Shown here one piece after another: positions 17,583 to 59,758 of a stretch of 64,000 bases of DNA (the first letter of the stretch is position 1; every line of letters begins with the position of its first letter). Under the pieces are notes generated by a model. It did not search any database and had not been told where the DNA came from. It worked only from the letters and a program-made list of their open reading frames with translations. The stretch is from Eledone cirrhosa (Eukaryota): NCBI GenBank assembly GCA_964016885.1, contig OZ024750.1:20336001-20400000 (forward strand), given 5' to 3'. The position numbers and the translations under genes were made by a program.

Positions 17583-17806
17583 AGTAATAATAATAAATTT
17601 GAAGACTAAAATCCAAAGAGGGCTCGATAAGGATAAATATATATCAAATATATAAGAACCGTAGAGCAAATATTTATTAAAATAACAGATTAAAGTTTAA
17701 GCAAAGAATCGCATGCTTTCACCCTTAACGGGATCTTCAGAAGATCCCGTTAAGAGTGAAAGCAGCGATTCTTTGCTTAAACTTTGATCTGTTATTTTAA
17801 TAAATA
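17583..17806 (-). mobile_element. Fold-back element family E (tail + palindrome centred at 17739, hammerhead-like core)
   Basis: Palindrome ~17672-17806. Minus strand CTGAAGA-TCCCGTTAAGGGT-GAAA. Other full copies at 26605-26823 and 58882-59100. Confidence 0.8.
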
Positions 17807-19235
17807 AATGAATATATATATATATATATATATATTATAATTGTTTTCTCAACGCTGTGGCTTGCTACCTAATATTTGAAATCCTACTCTAATATTGGTT
17901 ATACATACACTGTATATGCTAGTGGTACTCTTCTTTCGGTGTATGGTTAAGTTTATCAGACCTACATCATCAACTTTATATACAGAAACGAGTTGGTTTT
18001 TGAAAGGTAGACAATCAATTTCTCGTGGATTATTCAAGAAAGTAAGCTTTCTTGAATATTCTAATATATTGTTTGTTATATACTGCAGTGTATTTAATCT
18101 ATATTATATTCTATTACTGGTTTCGGAGATTAACCATGGTGTACATCATTTTGAAAGTGTTTAGTGTTTCAAACACTGATCGTAGAAAAGTAATATATAT
18201 TTCAACTAAATGTATACATTTGTAAACAGCTTATATATGGTCCAGTATGTGCACATGAGGTAGCTTCCTAGTTGACATAATCGTAAAACTGGCCATGCGT
18301 ACGGTGCGGGTTTGCAACTGAGCATATTTATACGTCAGCTAGTTATTATATTGCATTGGATGCCCAGTGGAAGTAGCAGTGTTTCCACGGATTCCCTCGA
18401 TTTAGATTCCCTGGGAAAGAAAAGAAACTGTTGTTCAGATTAATTAATGTTTAAACATGTAATCAAAACGAAAGTGGGAGAAAATTTGAAAAAAATAACT
18501 ATATATATATATACCTGTGTGTGTGTGTGTGTGTGTGTGTGTGTGTGTGTGTGTGTGTGTGTGCGCGTCTCTCTCTCTCTCTCTCTCTCTCTATATATAT
18601 ATATATATATATATATATATATATATAAAGAATACGTTACACATTTCTAAATATTAAACGCAATATCAGGAGTGGCTAGAGTATGTAAAACGCAATATAG
18701 GAAACCTTATGTAATATAAAATGGGTTCGTGTTGAAAAACAAATATATATGCATGTGTGCGTGTGTGTGTCTGTATGTGTGTCTGTGAGTGTGTGTGTGA
18801 CATAGAATATTAACACAAGGCTATGGGCATTTCATTGACGTGATTGAATCCTTTCGCAAAATACTTGCATGAAAAACACTCGAAATAACAGATATGCCAT
18901 TTGAGTCTTCACTATATACATGCATAAATATATAAACACACACACACACTCACACACGCGCACGCACACACACACACACACACACACAAACACACACACA
19001 CACACACACACACACACACACACACATACACACACACACACGCATATATATATATATATATATATATATATATATATATATATATATATATATATATACA
19101 TATATATATATATATATATATATATATATATATATATATATGTGTGTGTGTAACACAGACAGCCACACAGACAGCCACACAGACACATACACACACACGT
19201 ATATATATATATATATATATATATATATATATATA

Positions 19236-19690
19236 TACGATATTAAATAAATGGAAACTATATTTATAAAACCATATTTATTTCATTATATATATTTCAG
19301 GGATATCATATTAACAATATGCTATGCCTTCCTCAGACAAAATACAATATAAACAGTTTTATAGATAAATAGATTTGACATACTGTACAACATCGACTTG
19401 TATTTGAAAAGTTGAATTGCCAATTCAACTTTTCAAATACAAGTCGATGTTGTACGGTATGTCAAATCTATTTATCTATAAAACTGTTTATATTGTATTT
19501 TGTCTGAGGAAGGCATAGCATATTGTTAATATGATATCCCTGAAATATATATAATGAAATAAATATGGTTTTATAAATATAGTTTCCATTTATTTAATAT
19601 CGTAAATATTATCCAAATACTTGTCGAGTGCTTTTATATCAGTTATAAATATTTACTAGTTGTAACCCAACAATTTAAATATAACTTTCC
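19236..19690 (+). mobile_element. Fold-back element family A: 184-bp near-perfect palindrome + tail, in (TA)n
   Basis: 19236-19419 vs 19421-19604, 1-nt spacer, one mismatch seen. Tail 19605-19690. Confidence 0.9.
19496..19561 (+). ncRNA. Minimal type I hammerhead ribozyme motif (mirror copy 19279-19344, minus strand)
   Basis: TATTTTGT-CTGAGGA-AGG..CATATT/AATATG..CCT-GAAA-TATATA-TA-ATGAAATA. Helices I and II pair and helix III is palindromic. Predicted cut after A19553. Confidence 0.8.
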
Positions 19691-20033
19691 ATATATATAT
19701 ATATATATATATATATATATATATAGAATTGGTTTGGATGAAACAATTGTAAGCTAATAAATGCTTTGAACATAGCTTTGATTCATGTAATTTCTATATG
19801 ACTGCTCTGTAGAACAATTGATGTTATTACATTGAGCTATTTATCTTACTGGTAATAACGTAGTAATAAATTACTGTCTTTCACTGTTTAGGGTTTAAAA
19901 TATATATAATTATAAAAAGTTTTAGTAAATACATAACCATAAATAGTATCCTTAATACTATATATATATATATTTCGTTTCTGAATTTGTTTAGCAAGAT
20001 GCTTTATCTGAAAACCTGTGTTGAAACCGATAT

Positions 20034-20664
20034 TGTTATACTTTGGGAGGGTCAGTTGCCAATAAGAAACACGTGCACCAGTTGTTTTCACATTAGCATG
20101 CTAAAATAGAACATAAGGGTAAATTAGAGAACATAGAAATAAAGATAGAATCCACACACAGAAAAGACGCAATGTTTAGACAAATCACAGAGGCAATAAA
20201 CATAAATGAACTCCAACTAAAATTAAATAGAAAACATGAATGGAACAGCAACATCACAACTTACAAATAAGGACAAAATGAAAACACACACACACATAGA
20301 ACAAACAACCAACAAGTAAAATGTAAATAAACAAATAAATAAACAAATATAAACACACACAGACACCCGGATGTAACACATGCGCAAACTAAGCACACAA
20401 CATACACAAAAACAAGATGGCGTAGGACAGAACAAAGGAGAGGCACAAAAACAAAGAAAAGAATCCCCAGTCACTGAACAGGTCACATAAGGTGTGACGA
20501 AAGAACTTTGACAATATATGAACAATCGTCTGGTTATTGAACCAAGCAACCGACCGGAAATTTATAAATTCCTAAATTTATAAATTTAATTTATAATAAA
20601 TTGAAGTGAAAGCAACTAGTGCGTGTGTTTCTTATTGGCAACATGACCCTCCCAAAGTATAACA
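20034..20664. mobile_element. TIR-bounded non-autonomous element (TGT...ACA ends, ~58-bp TIRs, ATAT flanks)
   Basis: 20034-20091 is the reverse complement of 20606-20664. The same end motif gaccctcccaaagtataaca recurs at ~55085, with diverged versions at ~56810 and ~58485. Confidence 0.65.
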
Positions 20665-21023
20665 ATATATATATATATATATATATATATATATATATAT
20701 ATATATATATATATATATATATATATATATACAATCACGTTACCTTATGTTGAGTGAATGTTAAATTTGAATTTATGTCAGCTAACAGTATGCTAAGTAG
20801 TAAAACATGCGTTTGACAACTTGGTTGAAAGATTGAAGCATATGAACCCCTAAAGACGAAAGGCGGTGGATTGTATCACCTGCATGAATATAAAGTAGAC
20901 TACCGACATATGGCTGGTATTCTTTTCCTACGAGCATCTCTATTCCCATTCTTCTACTCTAGGGTGTTTAATGCCGAACTGAACTGACTATTTGAAAGTC
21001 AAATCTGCGTTGCATCAGTTTAA

Positions 21024-21197
21024 GTATCGGTAGAGGGTCGGACGCCATGCTTTCCAGCATAGTTACGTCCCTTTATGATCTGAGTTCAAATCCCGCCGAG
21101 GTTGACTTTGCCTTTCATCCTTACGGGGTCGATAAAATAAAGTACCAGTAATGCACTGGGTAATTTGCTGGCCTTATGCCTAAAGTAGAAACAATTA
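21024..21197 (+). mobile_element. tRNA-derived SINE
   Basis: Core and tail match the family. Confidence 0.9.
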
Positions 21198-57531: not shown

Positions 57532-58749
57532 TAAATAATAACAAGATTTTAGTGCCTAAATTCCCAATGTGGATACTACATTTTTCCCTGTTTCAAAATA
57601 CATTGGTTTGGCGATGTTTGATTATTTGTATATTGTCTTTATTCCAGAATTTAAGCTGAGTAATTCAAACACACGCATATATGATAGAAATATAACAACA
57701 CGTGTCAGCAGTTTTTTCATATCCAAACACATTTTGCAAAGGATAATTACGTTATTTTTTTCTTTTCAGAATGAATATTCAGGTGTGTGTATATATCTAA
57801 GAACAGCAGCAGAAACTCACACCAACACACACACAAATATATATATATTTATTTATATATTGTTTGTGTGTGGATGTATCTGTAGAAGTTCTTGTGAGTA
57901 TGCATATATATATATATATATATATATATATATATATATATATATATATATTCATATAATATATTCAACTATTAACCTACATTGTTCTAAATGTAATATT
58001 GCATGCTATTATACCAATCTTGTTTTTACATTATTCCTGCTGCGCTTTAAAACAGAAATATCGATAATTGAATGCGATATTAAAGTCAACCGGAAGTTGC
58101 CTATATTTAACGACATGGTGTTTCAAATATATATGTATATGTATATATATATGTGTGTGAGTGTGTGTGTTTGTGTGTGTTTGTGTGTTTGTGTGTATAT
58201 ATATATATGTGTATGTATACATATATATATGTATGTATATATACACGTACACATATATATATATACACGCACACATATATATATATACACGCACATATAT
58301 ATATATATATATACTGTTATTATGCTGAACTGGAATTTAAAACAAAGTTTTAATGTTTTTTTTTTTGTTTCTGTATTTACATATTTGATAGTTAAAACCG
58401 GTGATTACCAATTCCATTTGTTAAAATGAATTAGTTACAAATATATCGTTATAGTTGTATATATATATATATGTATAAATATGTTGTTATATTTGGGGAC
58501 GGTCATAGTGTTATAATATTGCCAGAAGTAATAATAAAACACACACAGTATTTATCATTGATTTAACAACGATGAGAAATATATATATATAAATATATAT
58601 ATATATATATATATAGCCTATCAAAGTTATTTCAGAACACAATGAAAGGAATCCAGTTCCTCAGAGAAATAACAACACAACCAGGAGCTGGACATATAGT
58701 AAAACACACTTCAAAAACATGTGTACTTGTCTTTCCGACACCAATTCGG

Positions 58750-58804
58750 ACTGCCTGAAGAGGTCACAGCCAACGATAGCTGTTACCGAAATATATATAG
58801 CAGT
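58750..58804 (+). ncRNA. Type I hammerhead ribozyme motif (family I)
   Basis: ACTGC-CTGAAGA-GGTcACAGC-caacgata-GCTGTtACC-GAAA-TATATA-TA-GCAGT. Canonical G10.1-C11.1 pair. Predicted cut after A58799. Confidence 0.85.
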
Positions 58805-58881
58805 ATATCTATAATTTATAATAAACGAAGCCAAATGTTATATACTTGACTTAATTATTTTATATATATATATATATATAT

Positions 58882-59100
58882 ATTTATTAAAATAACAGAT
58901 TAAAGTTTAAGCAAAGAATCGCTGCTTTCACCCTTAACGGGAGTTTCAGAAGATCCTGTTAAGGGTGAAATTAGCGATTATTTGCTTAAACTTTAATCTG
59001 TTATTTTAATAAATATTTGCTCTACGGTTCTTATATATTTGATATATATTTATCCTTATCGAGCCCTCTTTGGATTTTAGTCTTCAAATTTATTATTACT
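58882..59100 (+). mobile_element. Fold-back element family E copy
   Basis: Palindrome centred at 58948 plus the same tail as 17583-17670 (reverse complement). Confidence 0.85.
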
Positions 59101-59550
59101 ATATATATATATATATATATATATATATATATATATGCGTGTGTAGAAGCTGTAGAGATTCGTGTGTGTTTTTGTACCCCTTCGTATTTGAAAGAACATG
59201 CATTTTCATTACAGGTGGGGGAGGGGGGATATTATAATCAAACAGATTAATAAAATTTTAAAAAAGTACCTCCCTAACTAGAACACCTGTATAGTCAATG
59301 GTATGATTGTACTTATCCTGTATTCTCTATTATATATATAAATATATAGTCTTCAAATTTATTATTATTACTACATATATATATATATATGTGAAGTAAT
59401 TCCATCGGAAAAGTCCAGGAAAAAAAGAGTGCTCTATGTATGCAACAGAGCTTAATTATTATTATTATGTAATAAACAACATGTTATGTTGTTTATTACA
59501 TAATAATAATATATATATATATATGCAGATATATATATATATACATATAT

Positions 59551-59758
59551 ATTAATAAAAGGAATTCCAGCTTTGTCTGATTTACTCGTTTTATTTACAA
59601 TCCTTTAAATGTATAATGGTATTATAATCCTTTAATGTATAATCGTATTAGAATGAAATAGTATGGTACAATATTAAATGTTAAGTGTTAATAGAACAAG
59701 TACTTTTATGCTTTCGCAATCTTCAGGTTCAAATGTGGTGACAGTCAAGTTTTCAATG
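59551..59758 (-). mobile_element. Family H copy, degenerate (GAAA mutated to AAAA)
   Basis: Collinear with 41810-42000; internal duplication at ~59625-59650. Confidence 0.8.

Follow-up and report, generated by a model that had tools for sequence, protein, structure and literature searches.

Repeat units in the window

The stretch analysed here, which we call the window, comprises 64,000 nt of Eledone cirrhosa DNA (GenBank assembly GCA_964016885.1, contig OZ024750.1, positions 20,336,001 to 20,400,000, forward strand). It is populated by short insertions of families designated A to I, K and L, most of which carry or derive from a type I hammerhead ribozyme motif and which we relate below to Penelope-like elements (PLEs). 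The short palindromic copies, referred to here as stubs, run from a (TA)n tract through a tail-less inverted arm, the fold and a sense arm to a tail that is present on one side only, followed by a further (TA)n tract. Tails measure 33-97 nt, and the tail-less inverted arms stop 33-97 nt short of the tail end. The 3' flank is (TA)n at 29 of 29 loci of A, 27 of 30 of B, 28 of 30 of C, all 30 of E, all 30 of F and 28 of 30 of G, whereas D is followed by (TA)n at 11 of 30 loci and by (CA)n at 15 of 30. An initial annotation of this DNA had proposed this design for most of the families, and the design is real. The copies named in that annotation all lie at, or within a few bases of, the coordinates given, and four others (A-like, K, L and E) were added to them (Table 1). 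The (TA)n content of the window is 6.7%, compared with 3.8% in random samples of the genome (80 evenly spaced 10-kb pieces of 3.0 Gb).

Table 1. Repeat features of the window, in window coordinates
Feature	Coordinates	Strand	Details
E stub	17584..17812	-	Tail-bearing arm 17588-17742 (-), tail-less arm 17736-17806 (+); fold falls at the hammerhead core, no complete ribozyme; family core CAGAAGA
A stub (Hydra-type PLE 3' end)	19238..19691	+	Inverted arm 19238-19419; sense arm and 88-nt tail 19421-19691
A type I hammerhead	19496..19561	+	Helix I 8 bp, palindromic helix III; mirror copy 19279-19344 (-)
D stub	24727..24925	-	Older, diverged; minus-arm core intact, helix I cut by fold
K copy (added)	25025..25140	.	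Minus tail, plus tail-less arm, no core
E stub	26605..26826	-	Layout as in the E stub at 17584
B stub (Hydra-type)	26844..27274	+	Hammerheads 27078-27148 (+), 26879-26949 (-)
C insertion	29814..30162	.	Minus: long tail-less arm; plus: tail-bearing arm with internal deletion
A-subfamily tail-less arm (added)	34987..35188	+	Intact hammerhead 35082-35147
C stub (Hydra-type)	35237..35667	+	Sense core A9G; inverted arm with core intact, helix II damaged
L stub (added)	41612..41762	+	Starts within loop II, hence only the hammerhead 3' half
H stub	41811..42047	.	Minus hammerhead, core at 41960; tail-bearing arm short, deleted
G stub (Neptune-type)	42063..42509	+	Family core UUGAAAA...GCAA (A13C), helix I 3 bp
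D copy, degenerate	45340..45503	+	
H insertion (Neptune-type, very young)	45657..46277	.	Tail-bearing arm 45657-45794 (-); plus tail-less arm
D single arm and tail	49224..49351	+	Core U4G; begins at helix I 5' edge
F stub (Neptune-type)	49478..49834	-	U3-A8 hammerhead 49616-49653 (-)
K tail-less arm	54420..54487	-	Minimal hammerhead, intact (core at 54483); not linked to an ORF
E tail-less arm with natural upstream (added)	55847..56064	+	
I tail-less arm	58641..58860	+	Hammerhead 58750-58804; no ORF link found
E stub	58883..59099	+	Core CAGAAGA
H tail-less arm, diverged	59550..59763	-	G12 lost

Links of the families to coding sequences

Genomic copies of A to H (D through its sister subfamily D2) and of L continue into open reading frames (ORFs) for a reverse transcriptase (RT) and endonuclease, which are Hydra-type in A-E and L and Neptune-type in F-H. 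For A, complete elements were reached through the long upstream sequence common to copies without a short fold-back. In one of them (locus L037; loci are numbered with the letter L), an inverted pseudo-long terminal repeat (pLTR) is followed by a pLTR, a 739-aa ORF, a 1.3-kb 3' untranslated region (UTR), a further pLTR and the tail, the whole lying between TA runs. This arrangement of a pLTR-ORF-pLTR partial tandem with an inverted 5'-truncated copy was seen at L037, L022, L032, L359 and L360. The A matches are 99-100% identical (40 scored).

The A protein carries RWR, DKT and YRDD motifs, a CxCx5C linker and CxxC and CxH around a conserved E/N, with no CCHH; these motifs were read by eye against section 11 of PMC8557442 and the alignment rows of its supplement (Hydra-1_Obim). 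The A ORF had no Pfam or PDB sequence match, and a homolog search returned 27 proteins at 30-42% identity, including one from Argonauta, none of them named as a PLE. The Argonauta protein and the resemblance to Hydra-1_Obim suggest an octopod host. ORFs homologous to that of A adjoin B (L053/L293), C (L282, L283), E (L103, L106, L111, L291), D2 (L214) and L (L273). F (L285), G (L287) and H (L358-L360) adjoin ORFs of a second type that match Pfam RVT_1 and GIY-YIG, and their translations show a CX4CxxC-type (CX4-5CxxC) linker and a CCHH GIY-YIG domain at the C-terminus. Family H, whose loci were found through its upstream region, is very young: 41 of 41 among the matches listed show no difference over 221 nt, and in three of the insertions retrieved a 775-aa frame is open. 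Neither I nor K showed an ORF link in the loci examined; the stem in their tails is that of the Hydra-type families. Judged by motifs and homology, we assign A-E and L to the Hydra type and F-H, provisionally with respect to Nematis, to the Neptune type.

Two families encode more than this. G and H carry two overlapping ORFs (L358:3344-6993 (+), L360:792-4453 (-), L287:1255-4880 (-)), the first of about 440-450 aa from its first Met and 30% identical between the families over 242 aa. This ORF1 terminates just past an in-frame U UUU UUA; the RT-endonuclease ORF lies in the -1 frame and has no Met ahead of the first conserved motif. The relatives P0028 and P0030 likewise end in IHFL. Downstream of the U UUU UUA site, prediction gave no strong hairpin. 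The window itself holds a decayed Hydra-type RT fragment at 14510-14758, with 49% identity to the A protein over 85 aa.

Hammerhead motifs

A strict type I descriptor found 8 CUGANGA sites in the window and none in 60 dinucleotide shuffles. This narrow first descriptor missed D, E and L because their helix III is paired (4-5 bp) rather than a bare palindrome. When UUGANAA cores and a paired helix III were also allowed, there were 10 window sites (A twice, an A-like copy at 35090, B twice, H twice, and F, I and K), as against 3 matches in total over 30 shuffles, with 0-1 in each. A scan of 600 kb gave 18 CUGANGA sites, while control cores mismatched at positions 3 and 8 gave 0, 1, 0 and 0. The initial annotation was thus right to see PLE-type type I hammerheads here, including the U3-A8 core, and to tie them to PLEs and (TA)n. 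A bare palindromic helix III, which it took as general, applies to A and others but not to D, E or L, and its count of about 20 motif copies, which had taken in damaged copies and the non-canonical E and G, comes down to 10.

Minimum free energy folds of A, F, H and I monomers form helix I and helix II with the core open; no such fold was obtained for D, E or L monomers. Across 17 variants of A/B/C/I type, 94.5% of alignment cells are paired and 10 of 14 pairs have changed on both sides, a level that none of 500 shuffles reached and that compares with 36-61% paired in slid registers (the rows are related, so no probability is attached). The D subfamilies likewise exchange helix I pairs. An invariant C faces C or U at the same, fourth, position of helix II in the A, B, C and I hammerheads (alignment columns 19 and 48), and this mismatch is a candidate tertiary contact. 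Among the 150 of 323 rows listed for Rfam at E<=10 there was no hammerhead family, and these rows held only sub-threshold microRNA (miRNA) hairpins.

The canonical type I core and helices are present in A, B, C, D, F, H, I and K, but not in E and G; position numbering, and the effect to be expected of changes at U4 and A13, are general hammerhead knowledge. Among the matches listed, the genomic core of E reads CAGAAGA (U4A) in 50 of 58 and CUGAAGA in 1 of 58, and the CUGA of the window E copies is a product of the fold junction. G has GCAA in place of GAAA (A13C) in 54 of 54 among the matches listed. E and G amplify with cores that are fixed in a non-canonical form. In its full form, the L hammerhead combines a 5-bp helix III with UUGANAA or related cores. 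Read from the sequence, the window copies of C and D and the H copy at 59551 are damaged in core or stem.

Fold points and 5' ends

The fold of A insertions may lie within the pLTR or at sites up to more than 3 kb upstream of it; the end of the tail-less arm is constant. Of 62 short-palindrome junction rows 55 were distinct, and simple-repeat or neighbouring hairpins make up 8 of the rows. Because the junctions are mostly unique, the palindrome would seem to be made anew at each insertion and not inherited. In stubs the two arms are nearly equal in length, with spacers of 0-20 nt and microhomology. Longer insertions include unequal pairs, in which the tail-less arm extends upstream beyond the tail-bearing one by 70 nt or more (8 of 17 long two-armed A and 2 of 3 H insertions), and a single self-primed cDNA could not give such unequal arms without later deletion. 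An arm-allele test for two templates, in which the arms differed in most pairs (E at -128, F at -203), was not counted as evidence because the allele is rare among bystanders (1 of 29 in E, 1 of 14 in F) and query selection can explain the result.

The 5' ends of stubs were counted among bystander copies, that is, copies met by chance in other loci. For L, 31 of 61 ends lie in an 8-nt window and none of the 61 falls within 10 nt of the predicted cut. H begins at one base in 6 of 9 copies and E at one base in 4 of 19; F does so in 2 of 6, or within 10 nt in 6 of 9 at looser identity. The D2 row was dropped from this count (D1 loci were mixed in); by eye, 4 of 7 D2 bystanders begin at helix I. 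Peaks at -391 in G and -237 in A were also dropped, as they reflect reference or subfamily limits.

In C, D2, F, G and H the mode is preceded by a TATA-like 6-mer that begins 30-32 nt upstream. Given local backgrounds of 0.01-0.27, this number of families (5 of 9) has P=2e-4, or P=0.016 by independent promoter lineages (3 of 7; F, G and H share one promoter type); it tells against both values that the pattern was set after examples had been seen and that the +1 positions of C and G come from query-selected loci. The very young H insertion illustrates the spacing: its tail-less arm retains the natural upstream region, in which there is a CCAAT-like box and, at 46051, a TATAAAA that precedes the stub 5'-end mode (46082) by 31 nt. 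The hammerhead of this arm lies at 46121-46159. The spacing is 29 nt in the D1 copy at L134. In three of four L copies that have upstream sequence, TATTTA precedes the mode by 29-31 nt (counted by eye) and lies within ribozyme helix II, and E and L share TTAGTY at the 5'-end mode. In several families, then, stub ends cluster 29-32 nt past a TATA-like box, and hardly any lie at the predicted cut.

Origin of the stubs

We consider it probable that the stubs are the 3' pLTRs of protein-coding PLEs inserted in TA repeats, with palindromes that are likely head-to-head pairs of cDNAs from uncleaved RNA. This takes in what was observed of the ORF link, the motif, the target, the 3' ends, which are fixed for the tail and for the tail-less arm alike, the variable junctions and the clustered 5' ends. 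In outline, the GIY-YIG endonuclease would cut (TA)n; by analogy with the anole PAc element, RT would begin inside the RNA at two fixed points and so give one arm with the tail and one without; and two cDNAs primed from both ends of one break would be joined head-to-head. An RT start in the 5' pLTR would lead to run-off at the transcription start, 130-290 nt away, and the resulting stub, having no upstream TATA box, would likely be a dead end. The sequences thus suggest that stubs are short copies of uncut RNA and not a new class of element. Ribozyme cleavage would likely not be needed for these insertions, since E and G amplify with fixed non-canonical cores and PAc inserts without hammerhead cleavage.

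Several points weigh against this explanation or parts of it. Among 15 rows of F, 4 share one junction. The unequal arms could stem from deletions that long palindromes suffered later, and some E copies are joined through microhomology in helix I, as self-priming would have it. Among the 9 H copies there is one whose fold coincides with the predicted cut. No TATA box was found at the expected place in A, B or E, nor in the L reference copy, and no clear 5'-end peak was found in B, C, G, I or K, with 3-4 bystander copies each. A-type stubs picked by their tail have scattered folds, several inside the ribozyme, in a search whose 23 copies are mostly of a divergent subfamily and are not a fair sample of A. 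Many 5' ends coincide by eye with the 5' edge of the hairpin or of helix I, so that structure could set the stop. Finally, the Hydra-type ORF, which has no Pfam or PDB match, is assigned by motifs compared with those of PMC8557442.

The closest competitor, which we hold to be possible but clearly less likely, shares the origin from autonomous PLEs and has one cDNA fold back and prime its own second strand, with annealing or an endonuclease cut at a TA-rich internal site bringing the second arm to its end. The near-equal arms of stubs, their short spacers with microhomology and the E copies joined through helix I fit such self-priming, which was argued from palindromes at inverted junctions by Arkhipova et al. 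2013 (PMC3846280), and the tail has been ascribed to endonuclease resolution by Craig et al. 2021 (PMC8557442). It has to invoke later deletion in the long insertions of A and H, where each arm of the unequal pairs holds sequence absent from the other, although the junctions abut and the families are 95-100% identical. It is also at variance with PAc, which shows two internal RT starts and extension on two strands (PMC11167929).

A second alternative concerns the 5' ends, which could mark a stable hairpin where RT stalls or the RNA is trimmed, instead of a transcription start. The modes of H, I, F, G, B and C at the 5' edge of the hairpin and those of D and E at helix I (both by eye) speak for it, together with the families that have no TATA box (A, B, E). 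An RT stall is expected on the 3' side of a stem, and the L mode lies inside loop II, away from any stem edge; moreover, the 29-32 nt TATA spacing recurs across unrelated promoters. On balance stalling or trimming seems somewhat unlikely as the general cause of these ends, and the sequences leave run-off at a transcription start, ahead of hairpin stalling, with chances that we would call about evenly balanced. A TATA box and initiator have been noted in the pLTR of a rotifer PLE (PMC3846280), while Drosophila Penelope has a TATA-less internal promoter (PMC2377424).

Taken further, and more tentatively, the stubs may form a genome-wide 'strong-stop' record, in which RT, primed at both ends of a (TA)n break, starts at two fixed internal sites of capped, uncleaved RNA and runs off at its 5' end. 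Hundreds of thousands of insertions would then map the transcription start of each family and would show that ribozyme cleavage is bypassed. L would then act as a start/end switch, in that a promoter inside the ribozyme would cause the 5' pLTR to be transcribed with half a hammerhead and leave only the 3' pLTR cleavable. We put this short of an even chance.

The initial annotation had favoured discrete ORF-less, retrozyme-like families that are transcribed and self-cleaved as units and mobilised in trans. Stub sizes are indeed uniform within each family, nearly all D1 copies start no more than 10 nt from helix I and often abut (CA)n, I and K are without an ORF link, and a true tandem hammerhead array with a 466-bp unit does occur elsewhere in the genome (L238). 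The proposal is nevertheless improbable, and already weak for A to H: the ORF links extend to these families and to L, junctions are unique, most L stubs are half a ribozyme, stubs of TATA-bearing families have no TATA box, and the window contains no tandem units. The D1 copy at L134 retains an upstream promoter region resembling that of the ORF-linked D2, which, together with L214, weakens the idea of D as a free short interspersed nuclear element (SINE). That the units are miniature inverted-repeat transposable element (MITE)-like DNA transposons, or chance palindromes with coincidental motifs, can be dismissed as extremely improbable, since the long inverted arms flanked by TA and the generic sub-gathering Rfam miRNA hairpins that might suggest it are outweighed by a tail outside the inverted repeat on one side only, the RT-endonuclease ORF links, motif counts far above shuffles, and covariation.

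Relation to known systems

Elements of this kind are already known, together with their hammerheads, inverted ends, tails and preference for (TA)n; what the present loci hold is truncated ends of at least nine PLE families of two clades. The inverted 5'-truncated copy with a one-sided tail is a published PLE pattern (PMC8557442, PMC3846280). Like the Hydra clade of Craig et al. 2021 (PMC8557442), A-E and L have an RWK-like RWR, DKT, CxCx5C, CxxC and CxH with no CCHH, together with (TA)n targets, hammerheads, the inverted 5'-truncated copy and the one-sided tail, and Hydra-1_Obim of Octopus bimaculoides is listed there with a (TA)n preference and a hammerhead. They differ in size (about 4 kb with 1-2 kb 3' UTRs, against generally <3 kb), in tail length (53-97 nt, against 30-40 nt) and in their very high copy numbers, and neither the 5'-end clustering nor the non-canonical cores figure in the parts of the published description concerned.

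The F, G and H ORFs resemble those of Neptune-type PLEs in the CX2-5CxxC linker and CCHH GIY-YIG domain (PMC8557442), and they share (TA)n targets. They differ in the upstream 440-450 aa ORF of G and H with its -1 frame at U UUU UUA, and in the U3-A8 core of F and G. The legend to Fig. 1 of PMC8557442 allows for a frameshifted ORF1, the clade being unnamed there. The 31 recently active Penelope-like families in an annotation of O. vulgaris (PMC13282606) provide a further point of reference.

For the ribozyme, palindromic helix III and the U3-A8 variant agree with what Cervera and de la Pena 2014 (PMC4209133) found for the minimal type I hammerheads in metazoan PLEs, where thousands of dispersed single motifs from truncated PLEs and opposite-strand pairs 100-700 bp apart were described. 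The 4-5 bp helix III of D, E and L, the helix II mismatch of A, B, C and I, and the U4A and A13C changes of E and G depart from that description.

The analogy with PAc, a Poseidon element, draws on Frangieh et al. 2024 (PMC11167929), who reported two internal RT starts that bound the tail, cutting and extension of both strands, AT-rich targets and normal insertion by hammerhead mutants. PAc belongs to another clade, and its ribozyme and tail overlap the ORF start, whereas the tail here ends 30-80 nt before the ATG; the passages of the PAc paper drawn on here do not treat head-to-head stubs. Animal non-LTR retrozymes (PMC7229834; bioRxiv 10.64898/2026.07.22.740005) are likewise short, PLE-related and equipped with a type I hammerhead. 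They differ in being head-to-tail arrays expressed as circles, and no head-to-tail array of hammerhead monomers was found in the 64-kb window, where ORF-bearing elements are represented by head-to-head or single ends. An interpretation of stub ends as start sites was not found in the literature searched, which had few subscription papers, and the families themselves may already be catalogued in Repbase or Dfam.

Abundance and significance

In the 80 random samples there were 36 descriptor sites, compared with 0-3 in six shuffles; 3 of the 36 lie in a satellite and 3 in a tandem array. The motif density is thus about 1 per 26 kb, against 1 per 6.4 kb in the window, which is roughly four-fold enriched. 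Genome-wide this amounts to roughly 100,000 motifs, a quarter of the number implied by the window, so the very large population extrapolated in the initial annotation was too high. Most of these motifs are most likely silent. Sequence from the pLTR ends of eleven families makes up 2.1% of the samples (94 insertions) and 8.5% of the window, and L is the commonest bystander family, with 61-65 copies across the fetched loci. Coding remnants are abundant too: of the 80 samples, 14 contain fragments of Hydra-type ORFs and 5 contain fragments of Neptune-type ORFs.

About 2% of the genome would accordingly be short pLTR fold-backs, which could be misfiled as MITEs, SINEs or miRNA hairpins. How PLEs make their inverted ends, and what the hammerhead does for them, have been named as open questions (PMC8557442, PMC11167929). 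Young families with intact ORFs (A, H) and sharp stub ends offer direct predictions of start sites, and families that amplify with U4A or A13C cores are natural tests of the need for cleavage.

Other observations

A putative stem of 4-5 bp, ACUC or GCUC with GAGU or GAGC and loops of 6-38 nt, is shared by seven Hydra-type tails, where its distance from the tail end is 38-67 nt (A 19604-19691, B 27180-27274, C 35572-35667, E 59017-59099, K 25025-25095, I in L002 and D2 in L214). It is also found in other L copies, the window L having one change, and F, G and H lack it. In A and B the tail end is followed by a similar GCUC...GAGC hairpin. A (CA)n tract often adjoins D1 tails, as at 49340-49356 and 24722-24740 of the window, and the D1 tail end in reverse has what we take to be a likeness to a tRNA B box.

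The tandem array at L238:3328-4895 consists of 3.4 copies of its 466-bp unit at 100% identity with a hammerhead in each unit, a retrozyme-like arrangement, and related motifs occur in L267 and L272. Elsewhere in the window, the GC-rich segment at 25160-26150 lies between TA runs and resembles part of another retrotransposon, and copies of a SINE-like element that is unrelated to the hammerhead units lie at 21050-21520, 26405-26590, 28360-28630, 29200-29400, 43620-43940 and 57390-57530.

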